Positions 1,710-61,970 of a stretch of 64,000 bases of DNA are shown piece by piece. Every line of letters starts with the position of its first letter. Positions within the stretch are counted from its first letter, which is position 1. A model generated the notes under the pieces. The model searched no databases. It was not told the DNA's origin and worked only from the letters and a program-made list of their open reading frames with translations. Origin of the DNA: Felis catus (Eukaryota). The DNA lies in assembly GCF_018350175.1 (NCBI RefSeq), contig NC_058368.1:62374001-62438000 (forward strand), given 5' to 3'. The position numbers and the translations under genes are program-made.

Positions 1710-2004
1710 CATATTTCTCTTGCCATTTTAATTTCTCTTCTCATTGGAACTCATTTCTTCATTTGGTTCCTAGTTTGCCATACTAATTTTCCTTCTTTCT
1801 CTAGTGAATATTCCTCAGTAAGCTTTGCTGGATTCCCCTCTTCAAAATCCCAACGTCATAACACTAGAGTCTTTCTGTCCTTGAACTTAGCCTCTATCTA
1901 TATTTACTCCTTTGGTAATTTTATGTGTCCCTGGCTTAAATACTACACTCAAACATATACTAATTATGTATAAATTTCTACTTCTAGCCTAGATCTCTCC
2001 TTTT

Positions 2005-2050
2005 ATTTATTTTTATTTTTTTAATATGAAATTTATTGTCAGATTGGTTT
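2005..2050 (-). mobile_element. Ultra-short 5'-truncated L1 insertion (28 nt of L1 3' end plus A-rich tail)
   Basis: aatatgaaatttattgtcagattggttt (2023-2050) closely matches the reverse complement of the L1 3' terminus at ~61650-61679; 17-bp TSD cctagatctctcctttt at 1988-2004 and 2051-2067. Confidence 0.9.
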
Positions 2051-4815
2051 CCTAGATCTCTCCTTTTAACCACAGACTCATGAACCCCAATGAATATCAA
2101 ACACACACATAAATTTAACATACCCAGAGCTGATGTCCTGATATTCCCCACACATCTGCTCTTTCCACAGTCTCCCATGGTTTTGTAAATGGTAAACCTG
2201 ATCTCCAGTAGCTCAGGTTGCAAATTTGGAGCTATTACAACACCTCCCCATCATCTCCTATTCTTATTTTCCTCCTTTATTTTTCTCCTTTGTTCTTATG
2301 ACTAGACTATATGTTGGACATTTTACATGTTTACCTTGATTACTTTCTACTCCTTTGCTAGAAAGTAAATTTCATAAAAAATATTTTTTCATCATTACAT
2401 TCTTGTGTTTGATCCAATGAGTACTCAGTAAATATCTGTCGAATTAATGAATAAAAATGAATATTTTCTCCATTAGACAAATTTTGTCTTTAATTGCCTG
2501 GATACTAAACTACAAAGGAATAAAGAGGAAATATGTTGAGCTACTAAGATGGATGAATCTGAGGTTGAGAAATCCAATTTAATGAGTTCTAAAGTAGATT
2601 TATATAGCATTACTAATGAAAGTTATTTTGAATTTAAAATGTCCATGCCTGTTCTTGTACCTGGAATTTTCATTAGTTGGATTATAACTGCAACTGATCA
2701 AGAGAAATTTTGGTATAGAAAATTCAATCTCACCAGTTAAAATACATTAAGCTTACTCAGAAGTATTTATATCCTCTTTACAACAGGTCATTTGCAATAT
2801 TTCATAAATAATGTGCTCTCACCAGTATTTTTCTTTTTCTCCCCCACTCCTGGGCTTCCTAACTTCTCTTCTATTATGCTTCAGGTAATCTTCCTGGCTC
2901 TGACAATTAATTTTTTTCCCAGTTCTATCTTCCTTTGTGATAAAAAAGAATTGAGTTTTCCCTGGAGTAAACTGCGAGCGCTGTAGGGAATAACTGTCTT
3001 CACTTCAGACATTGGTTGCTCAGAAAAACTCTAGACTGATATCTCAGCATGTAGACACAATTGTAGATGTTTCTTTAAAAATCTGCTTGTGTTCTCTGCA
3101 CCAAACAAGGAAGGCATAATCTTTAATATCTAAGTAGACAAAATTATATTTATTTACAAATCATTGTGTTTTTCTTTGGCTTGACATCAGTCATTTGGTT
3201 GAGCTCTCTAAAGTCACACTTCTTTTGATCATAAGCACGTAACAGGTAGTATTTTTAGTATGTTTTAAAATTGACATCACTCCAAAAAAAGTAGTCATTC
3301 CTTTTGCCATGAAATTGTTTTGCTAATGCTATTAAATAATAACAATATTAAATTGGTAAGAATTTAAATAATGTAATATTTTCAAACAAGAATTGTACTA
3401 AGAGCAGTGATATTTAGAATTTAGAATGCCAATAAAGTCTTTTAAAATATAACATGGACAAAATAAGCCTTAACATAAAAATAAATACGATTTTGAATGT
3501 AAAAGGTTTCATCTTAAAAATGTGAACTCCATTTTGTATTCAAAAATTAGATTGTGACTTTTTCTTATGATGCATTACAGTCACAATTGTATGCCCTGGA
3601 AATAATACCTTGTGTGTGATTATTTTTCTGAGAATTATATACATGTTAATTCCACTTAAATGGAAAATACTATTGATCAGAAAAACTCATAATTTTGTAT
3701 TTAAAAAATTATACTTTAAAAACTATTCCTGTCAGCTTGAATCCATAGTTTAAAATGGGATCATCCATAAATATAGATTATATCATAAACTATCACCATA
3801 TTGAAAAAAATATATATCTTAGTCCATGTTGATGCCACTTACTGTATCTCTCCGAAGGATCATGTTGGAACCCCTCTACCCTTTTACTGAATTTGTGTAG
3901 ACAGTTGCAAGCATACTGAAGATTTTTCATTCTCCCTTGCAAAATGCATAGTCTCTGTATGTTAGTAAGAAGTAGGTTTGTGTCAAAGGAAATTGAGAAT
4001 CGCTATGTTAACTATTTCTCTGCAAATGATATATGTATTCTTTATGGCCACCAGCATGTATATATTTTTTTAACTGGTAGAACCATCCTGCTAATAGAAC
4101 AATCTGTTCTTTTGATTAGAGACTGAAGAGAAATGAAATAGGTTTCATAATATACAATTTTATACTGGGACTTACATGTGCACATTCATTCATTCATTTT
4201 GCTGAATAAACAACCCTGATAAGTAAAAAAAAAAAAAAAAAAAAAAAAACTATTCATATCGAATGTAAAAGGATCAGGCTTTAGTTCACTGATATTTGCT
4301 AACCATCTAAATTTTAATAAGATTACAGCCTATGTTTTATGTTTCACTATTTTCTCTTTTATGTTTACCATATTTTCTGGTGCCTAAAGAGAAGAGATGC
4401 TAACAATATTCTCTGAATGAATGTATTCATAGATTTAATGGTAATTTAAGTTTACAATAAAAAGCAATAAATACAGACTGAAAGAGCCAATGATGATGTT
4501 TTCTGCATAGGTTTTTATAAAGAAACAGTTAAAGTGATCTTAGCATATTTTGAATAATAAAAGTTGAGTTGTCAATATTGTAATATTTGGTGGCAAACAT
4601 ATATAATGTAATATCGATAAAGTCTTTTCACATTTTTTTATGAGTGAAGTGATACTACATATAATGTTAAAATGTTTACAAAGACTGGAATCATGAAATG
4701 ACTGATAATTTAACAAATACTAATTGCATACTGGTGGAAGTTCTTTCAAGGGAGTAGAAGCAATGTTGGCATCTCAAGGCATCCATTAAGTGCTTCATGG
4801 TCTCATGAAATTTCT

Positions 4816-24497: not shown

Positions 24498-25366
24498 CAC
24501 AAACTGGTGCAGGCACTGTGGAAAACAGTATAGATGTTCCTCAAGAAATTAAAAATAGAATTACCATATGATCCAGTAATTCTGCTACTTGATATTTACC
24601 CAAAGAAAGCAAAAGCACTAATTAAAAAAGATATATACACCCCTATATCTATTGCAACATTATTTACAATAGCCAAGATATGGAAACAACCCAAGTGTCC
24701 ACCAATAGATAAATGTATAAAGAAGATGTGGTATAGAAAGAAATACAGTGAAATACTACCCAGCCATAAAGAATGAAATCTTGACATTTGCAGCAACATG
24801 GATGGCTCTAGAAGGTATAATGTAATGCTAAGCAGAATAAGTCAGTCAGAGAAAGACAAATGCCCTATGACTTCATGCATACGTAGAATTAGGAAATGAA
24901 GCAAACAACAAAGAAAAAAAAGAGAGAGAGAGAAAAAAAATACCAGACCTAAATCTAGAGAATAATCTGATGATTACCAGAGGGGAGAAGCCTAAGGAGA
25001 TGGGTGAAATGGATGAAGGGGATTAAAGAGTATACTTAGTATGATAAGCACTGACTATGGAATTGATGAATCCCTTTATTGTACAACTGAAACTAATATG
25101 TTAAATATACTTAGATTTGTGGAGCACCTGGGTGGCTCAGTCAGTTAAGCATCTGACTCTGGCCTAGGTCGTAATCTTGTTGTTCCTGAGTTTGAGTCCG
25201 CATCGGGCTTTGTGCTGACAGCTCAGAGCCTGGAGCCTGTTTCAGATTCTGTGTCTCCCTCTCTGTCTCTGCTCCTTCCCCGTGCGGGCTCTGTCTCTCT
25301 CTTTCTCAAAATTAAATAAACATATTTTTTAATTATGCTTAGATTGAAAAATAAACACTTTAAAAA
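24498..25366 (+). mobile_element. 5'-truncated carnivore L1 3' end (ORF2 C-terminus plus 3'UTR)
   Basis: ORF 24534-24776 FLKKLKIELPYDP...WKQPKCP is L1 ORF2 C-terminal sequence; 3'UTR is interrupted by a SINE. Confidence 0.88.
25120..25333 (+). mobile_element. CanSINE nested in the L1 3'UTR
   Basis: TSD tat(a/g)cttagatt at 25106-25117 and 25334-25345. Confidence 0.9.
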
Positions 25367-25916: not shown

Positions 25917-26095
25917 TTTTTTAATATGAAATTTATTGTCAAGTTGGTTTCCATACAACACCCAGTGCTCATCCTAACAGATGCTCTCCTCAATGCCCAT
26001 CACCCACTTTCCCCTCCTTCCCACCCCCATCAACCCTCACTTTATTCTCAGTTTTTTATGGTTTGCCTCCTTCCCTCTCTAACTTTTTTTTTCCC
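25917..26095 (-). mobile_element. Short felid L1 3'-end insertion (~180 bp)
   Basis: ttttttaatatgaaatttattgtcaagttggtttccatacaacacccagtgctcatcc closely matches the reverse complement of the L1 3' end at ~61625-61685. Confidence 0.9.
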
Positions 26096-31632: not shown

Positions 31633-34600
31633 GAAGAGAGAGAAAGATGGTCATGGAGTAGGAGGACTCTAGGTTCATTTTGTCCCACGAACACAACTAG
31701 ATAACTATCAAATCATCCTAAATACTGCAGAAATTGACCTGAAGACTGACAGAACAAACTCCACAAATACTTTAGTAGTACAGAAGAGGCCACATCAAAG
31801 AAGGTAGGGAATGCGCATATGTGGTTTAGGGAAGAAACCAATAGCACATGCTGTGGAGGGGGAGCGAGCCACAGTCATGGAGAAGGGCAAGAGAGAGAAG
31901 CACACAGAGAGATGGAAGAGAACAATTTTTCCCCAAAGCCACTGACTTGGAAAATACAAAGGACTGCATTTCATGAGTTCTTGCAACCAATGGGACTTAA
32001 AGACCGAAGTTTTAAACATCAGAAGGCTTAGCTGGGATAGAGCCCAGAGGGTACTGCACTGCTCCTAGAGAGAAGGTAGGCAAATAACCCAGGGACAGAC
32101 AGCATAGGAACAGCAATCTGAAATGTGCTTCGGGCACACAGTGGGGAGATTATTTGCTCTTCTCAGAGCACATCCCTGAGAGGCAGTGTTCACAGAAACT
32201 CCTCTCCAGGAACAAAGGAGCTAGCCAGCACCCTTTCCCTCCCTTGCTCCTCAGCATAAATAGAGCCACCAGAGAGACACAACTCCCTGCAGATATTGGC
32301 TGCCTAACTTGCTTACAGCAGTCCTCACCCCTCCATGCTCTGACAGGACTATCCTTCTCTGTCAAACTTGCCTCAGCTCCAGCACGGTGGGTCTGTCCCC
32401 TGGAAGAACAGCACAAATCCTCAGCCATACCAGGTCTCCTGACTAGAGTTCCGGAGGGCTTCAGTTCCGGTGGAGTTAGTGTCAGGTCTCATTTCCCAAG
32501 TATGAGCACACCTAATTAAAACGTGCCACATTCAGGACAAAGACCAAAAACTGTCCACAGCAGGCAAGGAGAGCTTCTGTAGATAACTGGCCTGAAGGAT
32601 AGAGCAACCAAAACACAATGGCGAGAGTGCACTGTGCACACACCAGCGACATTCCCTGAAGCGCCAGGCCCTGGCGACTACATGAACTCTACTTCATAAG
32701 GTCATTGCTTTACAAAGAGACATAACTGACTTTTCTAACACAGAGAAAAATGCAGAGATGGTGGCATTTAAAAAAAAATGCAAAGATGGTGGAATTTATC
32801 CCAAATGAAAGAACAAGATAAGGCCATGGCCGGAGATCCTAAGTGAAACGGATATAGGTAACTTGCCTGATGGAGAATTTAAAGCAACAATCATAAGGAT
32901 GCTTATTGGGCTTGAGAAAATAATAGAAGACATCAAACAGACTCTTACTACAGATATAAAAGAGTTAATAAAAAATCAAACAGGGATGAAGAATGCAATA
33001 ACCTTGATTGGAAATAGGCTTGATGTGGGGCGCCTGGGTGGCTCAGTCAGTTAAACGTCCAACTTTGTCTCAGGTCATGATCTTGCAGCTCTTGAATCTG
33101 AACCCTGCATTGGGCTCTGTACTGACAGCTCAGAGCCTAGAGCCTACTTCAGATTCTGTGTTTCCCTCTCTCTCTCTACCCCTCACCTGCTCACACACAC
33201 TCTCTCTCAAAAAAAAAAATAAATAAATAAACATTTAAAAATGTGTATAACTACCCAAAGCAACATAGAAAATTAATGCAATCCATAACAAAATACCAAC
33301 AGCATTTTTTCCAGAACTAGAATAAACAATCCTAAAATCTGTATGGAACTACAAAAGACCCTGAATAGTGAAAGCAAACTTGAAAAAGAAAAGCAAAGCT
33401 GGAGGCATCACAATTCCATATTTCAAGTTATATTACAAGGCAATAGTGATCAAAACAGTATGATACTAGCACAAAAATAGACACATAGATAAATAGAATA
33501 GAATAGAAAACCCTGAAAGGAGCCTACAGTATATAGTCAAGTAATCTTCAACAAAGCAGGAAAGAATATCCAATGAGGAAAAGATAATCTCTTCAACAAA
33601 CAGTGTTGGGAAAATTGGACAGCAACATGCAAGAGAATGAAACAGGACTACTTTCTTACACCAAACACAAAAATAAATTCGAAATGGATTAAAGACGTAG
33701 ATGTGAGACTTGAAACTGTAACAGTACTACAGGAGAAAACAGGCAGTAACCTCTTTGATATCGGCCATAACAACTTCTTTCTAGATATGTCTCCTGAGAC
33801 AAGGGAAACAAAAGCAAAAATACACTATTGGGATTTCATCAAAATAAAAAGCTTCTGCACAGCCAAGGACACAATCAACAAAAGTTAACCTATGGAATAG
33901 GAGAAGATATCTGCAAATGACATATCTGGCAAAGGGTTAGTATCCAGAATGTATAAAGAACTTCTAAAACTCAACACCTCAAAAACAAAAACAAATAACC
34001 CAATTTAACAAATGGACAAAAGACATGAATACACATTTTTTCCAAAGAAGACATCCAGATGGCTAGGAGACATGTGAAAAGATGCTTATCGTTACTGATC
34101 ATCAGGGAAATACAAACCAAAACTACAATCATCTATCACCTCACACCTGTCAAATGACTAAAATCAACAACAGGTATTGGTAAAGATGTGGAGAAAGGAA
34201 AACCATCTTGTACTATTGGTGGGAATGCAAACTGGTACATCCACTCAGGAAAACAGTATGAAGTTTCCTCAAAAAGTTAAAAATAGAACTACCCTATGAT
34301 CTAGCATTTGCACTTCTAGGTATTTACCCAAAGAATACAAAAATACTAATTCAAAGTGATACATGCACCTCTTTATTTATAGCAGCATTATATACAATAG
34401 TCAAATAATGGAATCAGCTCAAGTATCCATCAACTACTGAATGGATAAGGAAGGAAGATGTGGTATATATACATATATAGCCAATGGAATGTTACTCAGC
34501 CATGAAAAAAAGAATGTATCTTGCCATTTGCAAAGATATGGATGGAGCTAGAGAGTATTATGCTAAGCAAAACTGTCAGTCAGAGAAAGATGAACACCAT

Positions 34601-34901
34601 ATGATTTCAGTCATATGTGGAATTTAGAAAACAAAACAATTGAGCAAAGGGAAAAAATGAAAGGAAGGCAAACTAAGAAACAGACTTAACTATAGAGAAC
34701 AAATGGATGTTTACCAGAGGAGGGTGGGTGGGGGATAAGTAAAAAAGGTGATGGGGATTAAAGAGTGCACTTGCTGTGGTGACCACCAGGTATTGTATGA
34801 AAGCGTTGAATCACTTAATAGTACGTCTGAAACTAATATACACTGCATGTTAATTAATTGGACCCTAAATAAAAACTTAAAAAAATAAAAAAATAAAAAA
34901 A
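31633..34901 (+). mobile_element. Older carnivore L1 with both ends retained and a ~3.1-kb internal deletion
   Basis: L1 5' start (aagatggtcatggagtaggaggac), 5'UTR, ORF1 N-terminus (PDGEFKATIIRMLIGLEK), SINE, then ORF2 C-terminal region ([13 protein letters not shown]...KIKSFCTAK), 3'UTR and A tail. Confidence 0.9.
33027..33240 (+). mobile_element. CanSINE at the L1 deletion junction, no TSD
   Basis: Complete head ggggcgcctgggtggctcagtcagtt through tail; its flanks are non-contiguous L1 sequence. Confidence 0.92.
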
Positions 34902-35604: not shown

Positions 35605-36312
35605 TCACAGATTTGCTTCGATGTTAGCTTAATGGTCAGCTAATTCTTGTATTGAGACTTCCTTAAGTGCCTTGAATCAGTAAGTCTCTCATCTTTTTAC
35701 AGTGGCCCTGTTTGCACTTTGAAGCATGCCTTAATTCTATGGCAGTTAACAACTGTGTCTTAGCATTCACTTCCTGTTTGTGCAGATAATCAGCCAGAGT
35801 TGAGAGATTGGGACCTATTTAGTCCCCTTTGTCATATTTACATCTCTGTACATGTGTTTTTAACCAAAGGAGATTTTTTCTACTGAAAGTGTTCTGAGTC
35901 AAGTCAAATAAAGACAAGCCCTATAAATGGAGCTTTTCCAGGAAGTTTCCAGACACGTTAAATAGAGAAAATTGTCTGGGCCTGGGGCTTTTGGGAAACC
36001 CCAAACTCGGTCTGCTCCCTCTGGTAGTTGGCTGGTTTTCACAATATCCAGTTTGAGACTGCTGGATGTTAAGGCAATGGTGGAGTTGGAATGAGGGGCA
36101 AGGGAACAGGGCAAAGTAAATCACAAATTACGCTATTTCTTAAAGAGTTCAGCCATTTTTTCCGAATAAATGCTTGTCCCACTGTTGCAGGACTTTGGTT
36201 AATTCCAGAGTGAAGAAAACATTGCTTTTTTCCCCAATATTTTGCAAGTGTCCTTTATTGCTTTTTATGAAAGAGCAGATTTCTAGAGGCCCTTATTTCT
36301 CTGCTGCCATGA
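35605..36312 (-). mobile_element. Ancient L1 (L1MC/MD-like) 5' region
   Basis: cagccagagttgagagattgggacct, aataaatgct...ctttggttaattccagagt and the terminal ctctgctgccat resemble recalled old L1 5'UTRs. Confidence 0.5.
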
Positions 36313-36572
36313 ATTTTGAGTCATATATTCCTTCTTTGTCCTGACTGGCAGCTGAATCTAACATCTGATATGACTGCAGTTTTCAAAGTTCCTATCTGCT
36401 AACATTGCATTACTCATACTGCATATATTCTTCCTCATATATAGTGAATGCCCCACCTGTTCCCTCAACAAAGGTCTTAATGCCTGCAAGCTACGGTCAC
36501 TGAGGGGCTTAATTCTAAGACAAAAGTTTGTCATCTTTGTGAATTCGTAATACTGCATAACAATTTTTTATT

Positions 36573-38133
36573 TTTTTCTTACTACTTTCATATTTATTAT
36601 ACAACAATTTTTTTACAAAAAATGTAATTATACATTGTATATTCTAAGAACATGGTGATCTGTAAGGCATTTCTTTTTTTTTTCAGTTTACAAAAGGTTT
36701 ATTGAAATGTAACCCCATCATAAGTTGAGAAAGTTCTGTAGTTTTTTTTCAATATATGAAATTTATTGTCAAATTGGTTTCCATACAACACCCAGTGCTC
36801 ATCCCAAAAGGTGCCCTCCTCAATACCCATCACCCACCCACCCCCTTCTCCACCCCCCATCAACCCTCAGTTTGTTCTCAGTTTTTAAGAGTCTCTTATG
36901 CTTTGGCTCTCTCCCACTCTAACCGCTTTTTTTTTCTTCCTTTCCCTCCCCCATGGGTTTCTGTTAAGTTTCTCAGGATCCACATAAGAGTGAAAACATA
37001 TGGTATCTGTCTTTCTCTGTATGGCTTATTTCACTTAGCATCACACTCTCCAGTTCCATCCACATTGCTACAAAGGGACATATTTCGTTCTTTCTCATTG
37101 CCATTTAGTACTCCATTGTGTATATAAACCACAATTTCTTTATCCATTCATCACTTGATGGACATTTAGGCTCTTTCCATAATTTGGCTATTGTTGAGAG
37201 TACTGCTATAAACATTGGGGTACAAGTGCCCCTATGCATCAGCACTCCTGTATTCCTTGGGTAAATTCCTAGCAGTGCTATTGCTGGGTCATAGGGTAGG
37301 TCTATTTTTAATTTTCTAAGGAACCTCCACACTGTTTTCCAGAGTAGCTGCACCAATTTGCATTCCCATCAACAGTGCACGAGGGTTCCCATTTCTTCAC
37401 ATCCTCTCCAGCATCTATAGTCTCCTGATTTGTTCATTTTGGCCACTCTGACTGGCGTGAGGTGATATCTGAGTGTGGTTTTGATTTGTATTTCCCTGAT
37501 GAGGAGCGACGTTGAGCATCTTTTCATGTGCCTGTTGGCCATCTGGATGTCTTCTTTAGAGAAGTGTCTATTCATGTTTTCTGACCATTTCTTCCCTGGG
37601 TTATTTGTTTTTCGGGTGTGGAGTTTGGTGAGCTCTTTATAGATTTTGGATACTAGCCCTCTGTCTGATATGTCATTTGCAAATATCTTTTCCCATTCCG
37701 TTGGTTGCCTTTTAGTTTTGTTGGTTGTTTCCTTTGCTGTGCAGAAGTTTTTTATCTTCATAAGGTCCCAGTAATTCATTTTTGCTTTTAATTCCCTTGC
37801 CTTTGGGGATGTGTCGAGTAAGAGATTGCTACGGCTGAGGTCAGAGAGGTCTTTTCCTGCTTTCTCCTCTAGGGTTTTGATGGTTTCCTGTCTCACATTC
37901 AGGTTCTTTATCCATTTTGAGTTTATTTTTGTGACTGGTGTGAGAAAGTGGTCTAGTTTCAACCTTCTGCATGTTGCTGTCCAGTTCTCCCAGCACCATT
38001 TGTTAAAGAGACTGTCTTTTTTCCATTGGATGTTCTTTCCTGCTTTGTCAAAGATGAGTTGGCCATACCTTCGTGGGTCTAGTTCTGGGGTTTCTATTCT
38101 ATTCCATTGGTCTATGTGTCTGTTTTTGTGCCA
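36573..38133 (-). mobile_element. 5'-truncated felid L1 (36742-38133) plus ~170 bp of 3'-transduced sequence
   Basis: ORFs 37369-37962 and 37105-37356 are nearly identical to the ORF2 C-terminus of the full-length L1; 14-bp TSD aacaattttttatt at 36559-36572 and 38134-38147. Confidence 0.9.
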
Positions 38134-38919
38134 AACAATTTTTTATTATTAGACACTTTTATGATGATAAAAAGCCACAATATTATTATTTAAAATTTAT
38201 AGAGTTTTTCAAAGATGATTTTTAAATCATTTTTGAAGGTGGTTTTTTAATAGGTTTCTAAAAATATATGGCAAATCATAAAACTGAGTTAATCTGAATT
38301 TTCAAAATATCCAAATATTTTTCTCAACTCTGAGATTTGAAGGTTAGCTAAAGTACTTACCATACATTTTCAAAACAGTTAATTTTACAAATGAAATCCA
38401 ATTATATTTGGGATGCTGTTATCAGCTTTGAGATTTTTTCATGCCCTAACCACCAGTTTTGTAATTTAAACATTTGTCTAATTATTTATACTATATGTAA
38501 ATGGCATTATACAATATTTCTGAGCAAGAGTTCTATCAAAATGTGTGGATATTGGATATATCAGTAAATTACACTAGATACTATAAACTTTTGATATAAT
38601 TGCAATATATAAGGATTATTAACCCCATAATTAGCACATTTATATTTAATGTAAATGAATCAACTACCCATGCCCTTTATATCATTTTAGGATTCCTATA
38701 TGACTGTGATATTTTAAGTTGCTATGACATGTTAAATCTAATTATGTACTTTAAATACAAAAACTATGCATTTACAACTTCATATTTCTTAACTACGTTC
38801 CTCCTTTTGTTAAACATGTTACCTTGCTATTAGATCTATCATCATGCCATGTTTTTTTTTTTTTTTTTATCACATATTGGCTGAGGCCAAAGTAAAATTT
38901 AAAAATATAAAAATAGCCT

Positions 38920-53230: not shown

Positions 53231-53934
53231 AATAAGTGTTTCTAACATCCACATATCTCATCTGTTCTCTTTTAAATAATGGCATAAAAAGCCACATTAA
53301 AATATGTTTTTCATATGCATTTTATGATACATATAAATATCATCATATATAAATAGATATAGATACATAGTACATAGATATATCAACAGTTACAATATAA
53401 TGCAGTGTATATTTAATGAAAAACACACTCAGATATTTGGAGAAAATTATTTTACTGTTTTCAAGTACACTTCAGTATTTGTTTATTTAAAATATTTTTG
53501 GTGTGTATCAACTAGTTTTGAAACTGTTTTGAATAGAACAGGAATATACTATGTTAAACCATCTCTTTAGAATGGGTGAATACATACAGAGACACTACTC
53601 TATGCTAAATTTAAATTCCTAAATTAGTAAAATAGAGTAAATGAGCCAAGGAATCTTTATCTCAAAGTGGATCTAGAGACAGAAAAGCAATACAGTCATG
53701 TATTTTCAATTATTACTATAAGCTCAATGAAATGGATTACATTATGAGCTACTAAAATTTTTTCAGGGCATTAGGTTGTCTAAATGCTTTTATTATCAAT
53801 TGAAGAGCAAGTGCCATTTTAAATACAGATATGCCTCAAATTCTCCATCTCTGTTTTAAAGGTTTTTTTTTAATTTTCCCCCTACTTAACTTTTCACTTT
53901 TCTTTGTAGAGATGTACAGACCTTATATGCAAGA

Positions 53935-55267: not shown

Positions 55268-55755
55268 AATTTTCTTTAGGGCATTAGGTTGTCTAAATGC
55301 TTTTATTATCAATTGAGAAGCAAGTGCCATTTTAAATATAAATATCCCTCAAATTCTCTGTCTCTGTTTAAATATATATCATAGTATTCTGATCCTAATT
55401 CATTATCCCCTTCTTATATATCTTAGAGCTTTCTATACTTGTTAAGAGATATATTAATCCACTTGCAAACTAATGTACATATTTTTCTTTATTCATTGGT
55501 TGCCCAAAAGTTATTTCAAAATATCATATCTTATTCTACTATTTATCATCTCTTCTTTTGAAACATATAAACACTTATTTTCTGTTTTGTATTTATTGCT
55601 AGTAGCTTAATCTAACACCAGAAAATACAAATATTGTACTCAAGCATTCAGAAAATACATATTTAATCATGAATAATTTAAAAAGACTTACACAAGTGGA
55701 ACCTTGCTTCTTGTTTATGAACTTAAACTAATTTAACTTAAAATCTGAAAATGTC

Positions 55756-56686
55756 GGAGAGAGATAGGAAAATGGTGGCGTAGGAGGACGCTGGGCTCAC
55801 CACGTGTCCTGCTGATCACTTAGATTCCACCTACACCTGCCTAAATAACCCAGAAAACCGCCAGAAGACTAGCAGAACGGACTCTCCGGAGCCAAGCACA
55901 GATGAGAGGCCCACAGAAGAGGGTAGGAAGGATGGAGAGGCGGTGCGCACTGCAGGGACTGGCGGGAGGGAGCCAGGGTGGAAGGGCGGCCTGCCGGCCA
56001 AGCAGAGCCCCTGAGTCTGGCTGGCAAAAGCGGAGGGGCTGGACGGAGTGTGTTCCAACAGCAAGCGGGACTTAGCATCTGGGAGGTCATAAGTGAACAG
56101 CTCTAATCAGAAAGCCGGGAGGGCTGGAGGACAAAGGGAGGGAGAGTTGCTGAGCCCCAGGATGACACAGCTCAGTTTGGCAGGGAACAAAGGTGCTCGC
56201 CAGCGCCATCTCCCTCGCCTATCCCCCAGCCAAAATCTAAAAGGGAACCAGTTCCTGCCAGGGAACTTGCTTGCTCTGCGCAAACACCCAACACTGTGCT
56301 TCTGCACAGCCACCCCTCCAGTAGCTGGTCTGACTCCCTCCTACTGCCACAGGGCTCCTCCTGAAGTGGATTACCTAAGGAGAAGCGAGCTAAGCCTGCC
56401 CTTCCTGCCCCTGTGCACCTTGCCTACCCACCCCAGCTAATACGGCAGATCCCCAGCACCACAAGCCTGGCAGTGTGCAAGTAGCCCAGATGGGCCACGC
56501 CACCCCACAGTGAATCCTGCCCCTAGGAGAGGGGAAGAGAAGGAACACACCAGTCTGACTGTGGCCCCAGTGGTGGGCTGGGGGCAGACATCAGGTCTGA
56601 CTACAGCCCGCCCATCAACACAAGTTATTCAAGACAACACAGGGGAAGTGCCCCACAGTCCCACACCACTCCAGGGACTATCCAAA
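55756..56686 (+). promoter_or_regulatory. L1 5'UTR (internal Pol II promoter region)
   Basis: GC-rich segment between the TSD and the ORF1 ATG; promoter function assumed from general L1 biology. Confidence 0.7.
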
Positions 56687-57588
56687 ATGACGAAACAGAA
56701 GAATTCCCCTCAAAAGAATCTCCAGGAAATAACAACAGCTAATGAACTGATCAAAAAGGATTTAAATAATATAACAGAAAGTGAATTTAGAATAATAGTC
56801 ATAAAATTAATCGTTGGGCTTGAAAACAGTATAGAGGACAGCAGAGAATCTATTGCTACAGAGATCAAGGGACTAAGGAACACTCAGGAGGAGCTGAAAA
56901 ACGCTTTAAACGAGATGCAAAAAAAAAAAAAAAATGGAAACAACCACGGCTCAGATTGAAGAGGCAGAGGAGAGAATAGGTGAACTAGAAGATAAAATTA
57001 AGGAAAAAGAGGAAGCTGAGAAAAAGAGAGATAAAAAAAATCCAGGATATGAGGGGAAAATTAGAGAACTAAGTGATACACTAAAAAGAAATAATATACG
57101 CATAATTGGTATCCCAGAGGAGGAAGAGAGAGGGAAAGGTGCTGAAGGGGTACTTGAAGAAATAATAGCTGAGAACTTCCCTGAACTGGGGAAGGAAAAA
57201 GGCATTAAAATCCAAAAGGCACAGAGAACTCCCTTCAGACGTAACTTGAATCGATCTTCTGCATGACATGTCATAGTCAAACTGGCAAAATACAAGGATA
57301 AAGAGAAAATTCTGAAAGCAGGAAGGGATAAACATGCCCTAACATATAAAGGGAGACCTATAAAACTCCTGACTGATCTCTCTTTTGAAACTTGCCAGGC
57401 CAGAAAGGATTGGCACGAGATCTTCAATGTGTTGAACAGAAAAAAATATGCAGCCGAAAATCCTTTATCCAGCAAGTCTGTCATTTAGAATAGAAGGAGA
57501 GATAAAGGTCTTCCCAAACAAACAAAAACTGAAGGAATTCGTCATCACTGAACCAACCCTACAAGAGATCCTAAGGGGGATCCTGTGA
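56687..57588 (+). pseudogene. L1 ORF1p, disrupted
   Basis: MTKQKNSPQK...EFRIIVIKLI; frameshift at the A-run ~56919-56934; RNNIRIIGIPEEEE...IIAENFP; premature TGA at 57264-57266; natural end LRGIL* at 57588. Confidence 0.92.
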
Positions 57589-57638
57589 GACAAAGTACCA
57601 GAGACATCGCTACAAGCATAAAACATACAGACATCACA

Positions 57639-60600
57639 ATGACTCTAAACCGTACCTTTCTATAATAACACTGAATGTAAATGGATTAAACGCACCAACC
57701 AAAAGACATAGGGTATCAGAATGCATAAAAAAACAAGACCCATCTATTTGCTGTCCACAAGAGACTCATTTTAGACCTGAGGACACCTTTAGATTGAGAG
57801 TGAGGGGATGGAGAACTATTTATCATGCGACTGGAAGCCAAAGGAAAGCTGGAGTAGCCATACTTATATCAGACAAACTAGACTTTAAATTAAAGGCTGT
57901 AACAAGAGATGAAGAAGGGCATTATATAATAATTACAGGGTCTATCCATGAGGAAGAACCAACAATTATAAATGTCTATGCACTGAATACGGAAGCCCCC
58001 AAATATATAAAACAATTACTCATAAACATAAGCAACCTTATTGATAAGAATGCGGTCATTGCAGGGGACTTTAACACTCCACTTACAGAAATGGATAGAT
58101 CATCTAGACACACAGTCAATAAGGAAACAAGGGCCCTGTATGGTACATTGGATCAGATGGACTTGACAGATATATTTAGAATTCTGCATCCCAAAGCAGC
58201 AGAATACACTTTCTTCTCGAGTGCACATGGAACATTCTCCAAGATAGATCACATACTGGGTCACAAAACAGCCCTTCATAAGTATACAAGAATTGAAATT
58301 ATACCATGCATACTTTCAGACCACAATGCTATGAAGCTTGAAATCAACCACAGGAAAAAATCTGGAAAACCTCCAAAAGCATGGAGGTTAAAGAACACCC
58401 TACTAAAAACTGAGTGGGTCAACCAGGCAATTATAGAAGAAATTTAAAAATATATGGAAACAAACAAAAATGAAAATACAACAATCCAAACACTTTGGGA
58501 TGCAGCGAAGGCAGTCCTGAGAGGAAAATACATTGCAATCCAGGCCTATCTCAAGAAACAAGAAAAATCCCAAATACAAAATCTAACAGCACACCTAAAG
58601 GAACTAGAGGCAGAACAGCAAAGGCAGCCTAAACCCAGCAGAAGAAGAGAAATAATAAAGATCAGAGCAGAAATAAACAATATAGAATCTAAAAAAACTG
58701 TAGAGCAGATCAACGAAACCAAGAGTTGGTTTTTTGAAAAAATTAACAAAATTGACAAACCTCTAGCCAGGCTTCTCAAAAAGAAAAGGGAGATGACCCA
58801 AATAGATAAAATCATGAAGGAAAATGGAATTATTACAACCAACCCCTCAGAGATACAAACAATTATCAGGGAATACTATGAAAAATTATATGCCAATAAA
58901 TTGGACAACCTGGAAGAAATGGACAAATTCCTCAACACCCACACTCTTCCAAAACTCAATCAGGAGGAAATAGAAAGCTTTAACAGACCCATAACCAGCA
59001 AAGAAACTGAATCAGTTATCAAAAATCTCCCAACAAATAAGAGTCCAGGACTAGATGGTTTCCCAGGGGAGTTCTACCAGACGTTTAAAGCAGAGATAAT
59101 ACCTGTCCTTCTCAAGCTATTCCAAGAAATAGAAAGGGAAGGAAAACTTCCAGACTCATTCTATGAAGCCAGTGTTACTTTGATTCCTAAACCAGACAGA
59201 GACACAGTAAAAAAAGAGAACTACAGGCCAATATCCCTGATGAATATGGATGCAAAAATTGTCCATAAGATACTGGCAAATCGAATTCAACAGCATATAA
59301 AAAGAATTATTCACCATGATCAAGTGGGATTCATTCCTGGGATGCAGGGCTGATTCAACATTCGCAAATCAATCAACGTGATACATCACATTAATAAAAG
59401 AAAAGATAAGAACCATATGACCCTGTCAATCGATGCAGAAAAGGCCTTTGACAAAATTCAGCACCCTTTCTTAATAAAAACCCTCGAGAAAGTTGGGATA
59501 GAAGGAACATACTTAAATATCATAAAAGCCATTTATGAAAAGCCCACAGCTAACATCATCCTCAATGGGGAAAAACTGACACCTTTTTCCCTGAGATCAG
59601 GAACACGACAGGGATGCCCACTCACACCACTGTTGTTTAACATAGTGCTGGAAGTTCTAGCATCAGCAATCAGACAACAAAAGGAAATCAAAGGCATCAA
59701 AATTGGCAAAGATGAAGTCAAGCTTTCACTTTTTGCAGATGACATGATACAATACATGGAAAATCCGATGGACTCCACCAAAACTCTGCTAGAACTGATA
59801 CATGAATTCAGCAAAGTTGCAGGATACAAAATCAATGTACATAAATCAGTTGCATTCTTATACACTAACAATGAAGCAACAGAAGGACAAATAAAGAAAC
59901 TGATCCCATTCACAATTGCACCAAGAAGCATAAAATACCTAGGAATAAATCTAACCAAAGATGTAAAAGATGTGCATGCTGAAAACTATAGAAAACTGAT
60001 GAAGGTAACTGAAGAAGATATAAAGAAATGGAAAGACATTCCCTGCTCATGGATTGGAAGAATAAATATTGTCAAAATGTCAATACTACCCAAAGCTATC
60101 TACACATTCAATGCAATCCCAATCAAAATTGCACCAGCATTCTTCTCGAAACTAGAACAAGCAATCCTAAAATTCATATGGAACCACAAAAGGCCCCAAA
60201 TAGCCAAAGTAATTTTGAAGAAGACCAAAGCAGGAGGCATCACAATCCCAGACTTTAGCATCTACTACAAAGCTGTCATCATCAAGACAGTATGGTACTG
60301 CCACAAAAACAGACACATAGACCAATGGAATAGAATAGAAACCCCAGAACTAGACCCACAAACGTATGGCCAACTAATCTTTGACAAAGCAGGAAAGAAT
60401 ATCCAATGGAAAAAAGACAGTCTCTTTAACAAATGGTGCTGGGAGAACTGGACAGCAACATGTAGAAGGTTGAAACTAGACCACTTTCTCACACCATTCA
60501 CAAAAATAAACTCAAAACGGATAAAGGACCTGAATGTGAGACAGGAAACCATCAAAACCCTAGAGGAGAAAGCAGGAAAAGACCTCTCTGACCTCAGCCT

Positions 60601-61458
60601 TAGCAATCTCTTACTCGACACATCTCCAAAGGCAAGGGAATTAAAAGCAAAAATGAATTACTGGGACCTTATGAAGATAAAAAACTTCTGCACAGCAAAG
60701 GAAACAACCAACAAAACTAAAAGGCAACCAACAGAATGGGAAAAGATATTTGCAAATGACATATCAGACAAAGGGCTAGTATCCAAAATCTATAAAGAGC
60801 TCACCAAACTCCACACCCGAAAAACAAATAATCCAGTGAAGAAATGGGCAGAAAACATGAATAGACACTTCTCTAATGAAGACATCCAGATGGCCAACAG
60901 GCACATGAAAAGATGCTCAACGTCGCTCCTTATCAGGGAAATACAAATCAAAACCACACTCAGATATCACCTCACGCCAGTCAGAGCGGCCAAAATGAAC
61001 AAATCAGGAGACTATAGATGCTGGCGAGGTTGTGGAGAAATGGGAACCCTCTTGCACTGTTGGTGGGAATGCAAACTGGTGCAGCCACTCTGGAAAACAG
61101 TGTGGAGGTTCCTCAAAAAATTGAAAATAGACCTACCCTATGACCCAGCAATAGCACTGCTAGGAATTTACCCAAGGGATACAGGAGTGCTGATACATAG
61201 GGGCACTTGTACCCCAATGTTTATAGCTGCACTCTCAACAATAGCCAAATTATGGAAAGAGCCTAAATGTCCATCAACTGATGAATGGATAAAGAAATTG
61301 TGATTTATATACACAATGGAGTACTACATGGCAATGAGAAGAACGAAATATGGCCGTTTGTAGCAACGTGGATGGAACTGGAGAGTGTGATGCTAAGTGA
61401 AATAAGCCATACAGAGAAAGACAGATACCATATGTTTTCACTCCTATGTGGATCCTGA
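57639..61458 (+). pseudogene. L1 ORF2p (APE endonuclease, reverse transcriptase, C-terminal Cys-rich domain), disrupted
   Basis: Endonuclease motifs GDFNTPL and SDHN; RT motifs GTRQGCPL and LFADDM; HCWWEC; in-frame stops ending at 58447, 59353 and 61303, plus frameshifts near the start and the end. Confidence 0.95.
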
Positions 61459-61570
61459 GAAATTAACAGAAACCCATGGGGGAGGGGAAGGAAAAGAAAA
61501 AAGAGGTTAGAGTGGGAGAGAGCCAAAGCATAAGAGACTCTTAAAAACTGGGAACAAACTGAGGGTTGAT

Positions 61571-61604
61571 GGGGGATGGGAGGGAGGGGAGGGTGGGTGA
61601 TGGG
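61571..61604 (+). other. G-tract cluster in the L1 3'UTR (G-quadruplex-capable)
   Basis: gggggatgggagggaggggagggtgggtgatggg; a G-rich tract is a known feature of mammalian L1 3'UTRs. Confidence 0.7.
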
Positions 61605-61970
61605 CATTGAGGAGGGCACCTTTTGGGATGAGCACTGGGTGTTGTATCGAAACCAATTTGACAATAAATGTCATATATTGAAAAAAAAATCAGAAAATGT
61701 CTTCATTGCTGCTGTATATGAAAACTTTTGAGTATATGGCATAATAAGGGCAGGCAGTAGCAGTACTATCTTATCAACAGTATAGCCATTCTCCAGAGAT
61801 GACGAGTAACAAGCACACATATTTACCTGCACATGTACATGTGGCCTATAAAATACAGAAATCTAAGTCATTATATCATGTATCTATCCAATAAGTAATT
61901 GAACACTGTACAAAGTAAAGAGGAAAATGAAAGAATATGGTCCTGTTATTTAAGAAGTTCCCAGTTTATT

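Follow-up and report, generated by a model that had tools for sequence, protein, structure and literature searches.

A 5′-truncated L1 in the cat genome with extra 3′ DNA of likely transduced origin: one step or two

We examined a window of 64,000 nt from the Felis catus genome (assembly GCF_018350175.1, contig NC_058368.1, positions 62,374,001 to 62,438,000), in which a 5′-truncated L1 on the minus strand is followed by extra DNA before its target-site duplication (TSD). The extra DNA is likely an L1 3′ transduction, a reading that we would put at roughly 0.85, because the TSD is anchored at the L1 5′ junction, the extra DNA ends in a poly(A) hexamer and a tail, and no template for it is found in the window. 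One transduction, with an internal hexamer and A10 run already present in the flank of the source element, is the best explanation and has slightly better than even odds; a serial origin through two successive transductions is possible. L1 3′ transduction is an established process in humans and dogs (PMC5668948, PMC4866827, PMC9311842, PMC13141329, PMC13756887, bioRxiv 10.1101/2024.08.27.596794).

Anatomy of the insert

The features of the insert are collected in Table 1. A preliminary description of this locus had placed the two 14-mers, the A8, both hexamers, the A10 and the segments between them, and all of these positions were correct on re-reading. It had also put an A7 ahead of the TSD; the run exists (36571-36577, with the distal hexamer 15 nt ahead of it), but two of its A's belong to the 14-mer, and outside the 14-mer the terminal tail is only AAGAAAAA, 8 nt that begin 12 nt past the distal hexamer. 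Between A8 and the 3′ TSD copy the extra DNA falls into two segments of 58 and 92 nt, with an AT content of 76%. The internal hexamer lies 14 nt upstream of A10. The second copy of the 14-mer lies 169 bp past A8, so that the repeat encloses the L1 together with the extra DNA.

Table 1. Features of the L1 insert, in window coordinates
Feature	Position	Strand	Basis or remark
5′ TSD copy	38134..38147, to 38150 with one mismatch	-	starts exactly at the end of L1 homology
5′-truncated L1, with the C-terminal ORF2 region plus the 3′ UTR	36750..38133	-	alignment to full-length copy
L1's own poly(A) hexamer	36762-36767	-	12 nt before A8
A8, remnant of the source L1's tail	36742..36749	-	full-length copy ends alike, with A9
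Proximal extra DNA, 58 nt	36684..36741	-	contains poly(A) hexamer 36698-36703
Internal A10	36674..36683	-	a former tail if serial; otherwise an A-run, native or expanded, from the flank of the source
Distal extra DNA	36581..36673	-	hexamer 36593-36598; 22% GC over 36581-36669
Terminal A-rich tail remnant AAGAAAAA	36573..36580	-	sequence reading
3′ TSD copy	36559..36572	-	exact 14-mer match

The same young family is also represented in the window by a full-length L1 (~55756-61690, plus strand), which has endonuclease (EN) and reverse transcriptase (RT) domains and stops in ORF2 and serves as a control. The truncated L1 is separated from it by a p-distance of 3.8% (52 substitutions over 1,381 aligned positions, 96% identity), and its ORF2 piece has 95% amino acid identity to the ORF2 of the control. 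Right after its tail the control carries a 16-bp TSD with one mismatch, and that tail is A9 only, TSD included; both copies thus end alike, in 8-9 A, and the 8-nt terminal tail of the insert is similarly short. A short tail and a slightly imperfect TSD are therefore normal for L1s of this age class. The control further contains an A16 run in its ORF1 region, at 56919, which suggests that A-runs expand in place. Rfam models run over 36000-38800 gave three weak matches, all of which lie within the L1 and score far under the gathering cutoffs.

Words sampled from the left flank and the extra DNA were 95% present in 19 sequencing runs from nine studies besides the possible source, so this part of the sequence is no assembly artefact; the 19 are the runs that ranked highest by sampled words, and are silent on fixation.

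Target-site duplication and origin of the extra DNA

The 14-mer occurs twice in the whole window, counting either strand, and these two copies are the ones that bound the insert. The repeat lengthens to 17 bp if one mismatch is allowed, and by alignment to the full-length copy it adjoins the L1 5′ junction exactly, with no microhomology. When the 250 nt that follow the tail were shuffled with dinucleotides preserved, 6 of 20,000 shuffles gave a junction match of at least 14 nt (~3 in 10,000). Such a match was found at 12 of 21,072 AT-rich pseudo-junctions and at 68 of 489,900 pseudo-junctions overall; Markov models put it at about 2-4 in 100,000 per 200 bp. The shuffle count argues against the extra DNA being native flank, that is, an L1 inserted with no surviving TSD and a 14-mer that matches by chance or is left over from an earlier duplication at the locus. 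We consider such an origin unlikely, though several observations favour it. The target word is A/T-rich, and a third copy of it, 11 bp long and absent from the preliminary description, lies nearby within the extra DNA at 36603-36613. Its occurrence there weakens the case for the TSD. Moreover, L1 tails of the young family are often T-interrupted, which makes the first three letters of the 14-mer less informative.

Also in favour of native flank, the extra DNA aligned colinearly with the right flank under one scoring (1 shuffle in 300 and 5 in 500 did as well, and 0 of 120 when anchored), this alignment being the best of 456 tiles. The similarity was gone under three other scorings, where 36 to 143 of 500 shuffles did as well, and a composition-corrected pair-HMM of the extra DNA against the right flank gave a best ln LR of 1.8, a value reached by 33 to 130 of 600 shuffles. 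An old tandem duplication involving the right flank was accordingly rejected, as it fails the three scorings and the pair-HMM (ln LR at most 1.8). Tandem Repeats Finder (TRF) reported no array spanning the insert site.

The 11-bp copy bears on another alternative, in which two coupled or nested events struck one target, by re-priming or template jump. Two copies of the target word would then bound an insert of ~30 nt (hexamer, 12 nt, tail), while the first and the middle copy would bound the L1 together with about 125 nt of flank. Coupled events would account for the 11-bp copy, which arises in 115 of 20,000 shuffles when the extra DNA is randomised. Elsewhere in the window, a 17-bp TSD surrounds a ~30-nt L1 3′ end, which indicates that tiny inserts occur. 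Against this, the longer insert would be left with almost no tail and with a variant hexamer only, and two events at the same base should be far rarer a priori than the 0.6% chance match. We regard coupled events as very improbable. The same low standing applies to their particular form in which the copy at 36603-36613 would record re-priming, with a ~30-nt cDNA taking the target overhang before synthesis restarted on a transduction-bearing L1 RNA; if true, the insert would be an inherited germline fossil of ORF2p template jumping, atop a possible serial transduction.

The terminal hexamer precedes the A-rich tail by 12 nt, inside the 10-40 nt that PMC9311842 reports between poly(A) signal and tail in human donors; the hexamer alone arises in 423 of 5,000 shuffles. 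No other copy of the extra DNA was found in the window by blastn or by a motif scan, which matched only itself, and sensitive alignment within the window gave scores inside the shuffle range. In metagenome contigs, a scan with a degenerate motif returned 0 loci. Templated insertions resemble the present case in placing non-L1 DNA of less than 250 bp inside an L1 insert, but their templates are described as lying no more than 15 bp from the site (bioRxiv 10.1101/2024.08.27.596794), and here no template was found at that distance from the insert.

The nick site on the top strand reads CT/AATA, AT/AATA or AT/AAAA according to the length taken for the TSD, which is A-rich and not the canonical TT/AAAA.

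One transduction step or two

Under a single transduction, transcription of a full-length source L1 would have run past the element's poly(A) signal and on into ~160 nt of AT-rich flank. Cleavage and polyadenylation of the RNA would have followed some 12 nt past the distal hexamer, where the anatomy of the insert places the start of the tail. Target-primed reverse transcription would have copied the tail, the flank and the 1.38 kb of L1 that are present in the insert, ending within ORF2 and leaving the 14-17 bp TSD. The internal hexamer and A10 would have been present in the source flank beforehand, the A-run being native or expanded by slippage and possibly part of a decayed element of the Tigger type. 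Human transductions have a median length of 63 and a mean of 206 nt (PMC9311842), and the ~160 nt of extra DNA fit these lengths.

The preliminary description had instead read the insert as a serial 3′ transduction. Its transduction is well supported by the TSD, the terminal hexamer with its tail and the lack of a local template; its serial step is a possibility drawn from the internal hexamer and A10, a kind of module that is found in non-retroelement DNA of the window as well. On that account the 58-nt flank would have come from a grandparent L1, with A10 added as its tail at the parent locus, and the parent would later have read through both signals and picked up ~90 nt more. The geometry of the internal module (hexamer, 14 nt, A10) is indeed tail-like, and the module is rare: when the extra DNA was shuffled, a hexamer with at least ten A's came up in 6 of 5,000 trials (42 of 5,000 for at least eight A's) and in 0.6% of 170-nt windows taken as background. 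Nested transductions with poly(A) tails between the segments are reported for SVA elements (bioRxiv 10.1101/2020.12.16.423102).

Elsewhere in the window, 13 sites combine a hexamer with at least eight A's, as classed by eye with overlapping hexamers merged. Seven are SINE tails and two are L1 tails (one being that of this insert), which makes nine of the 13 retroelement tails and favours the serial origin; the other four, among them a site with A25, lack any SINE or L1 end and weigh against it. Both the rarity of the internal module in shuffles and the preponderance of true SINE or L1 tails among comparable modules count against the single step, as do the short terminal tail, the non-canonical nick site and the tentative nature of the Tigger likeness. 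Taken by itself, the tested evidence makes the serial origin no less likely than the single step.

Other considerations tell against a serial origin. Extra DNA of 76% AT is easily parsed into further modules, for example the variant hexamer at 36638-36643, which precedes another A7 by ~23 nt. Two rare read-throughs are required; transductions are rare in dog (~1.8% mappable, PMC13141329), so that two in succession should be rarer still.

What shifts the balance is the possible identity of the proximal segment. Its 58 nt seem to resemble the end of an old DNA transposon of the Tigger type (MER47A-like, the family name being uncertain), and the likeness seems to run a few bases beyond A10. On this assumption the hexamer at 36698-36703 would be a product of CpG decay, and beneath A10 there would be A-rich sequence native to the element. 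The putative element would supply an A-rich stretch at A10 with no earlier tail, and lowers the odds of the serial origin because of this. No partner inverted terminal repeat for the proximal segment was found in either flank, which speaks against native flank, and the absence of the partner end is expected if one end alone was transduced. We therefore keep the single transduction as the best explanation, and hold the serial origin, judged from the window alone, to be possible but distinctly the less probable.

Known systems and other elements of the window

Multi-step structure is known among the transduction lineages of human L1, in AC002980, RP and LRE3. The three lineages are named in PMC4866827. 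The cat insert is like human and dog L1 3′ transductions, as these are described, in having an L1, a tail, unique DNA, a downstream poly(A) signal and a second tail within one TSD (PMC5668948, PMC4866827, PMC9311842, PMC13141329), and unlike them in that its tails are eroded, its host is, as SINE and L1 3′ ends also suggest, a cat-like carnivore and the insert is known from the window alone. The stacked segments split by A-runs recall the nested transduction of SVA, for which three sequential events are described (bioRxiv 10.1101/2020.12.16.423102); the SVA segments were, by that account, traced to source elements, whereas the cat insert is known from a single window. Retro-DNAs are fragments of DNA transposons, Tigger included, that were retrotransposed with a long TSD and a tail, but the study that describes them reports leaving out fragments that adjoin a retrotransposon (PMC11195612), and the Tigger identity is in our case tentative.

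Nested transduction has already been described, and the cat insert is at best a new carnivore example of a known process. A transduction tags its source element; if mapped, this one would point to a single active lineage of L1 in a cat-like genome; the serial origin, if true, would give three loci in order. Our limited search of the literature, by titles and the starts of abstracts, returned nothing on L1 transduction in felids, which is no proof of absence, and a mapped case might for this reason add a little to what is known of felids; the mechanism itself is well known, and the insert implicates no gene or function.

Several other elements of the window were recorded. At 4205-4249 (plus strand) a poly(A) hexamer stands 14 nt ahead of an A25 run; upstream there is neither a SINE nor an L1 end, and the preceding 2.2 kb showed no TSD of at least 8 nt; it may be a native A-run or an orphan retrocopy end. 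An extreme L1 truncation lies at ~1992-2067 (minus strand), with ~30 nt of the 3′ end, a T-interrupted tail and a 17-bp TSD. Older L1 pieces, with 70-82% identity to the young copies, are found at ~33226-34900 (plus strand) and at 24500-25099 and 25917-26093 (minus strand), among many SINEs of ~200-230 bp. Finally, a local direct duplication of ~105 bp, with 90% identity and its copies 1.5 kb apart, occupies 53756-53859 and 55268-55372; the latter copy adjoins a TA/CA microsatellite.
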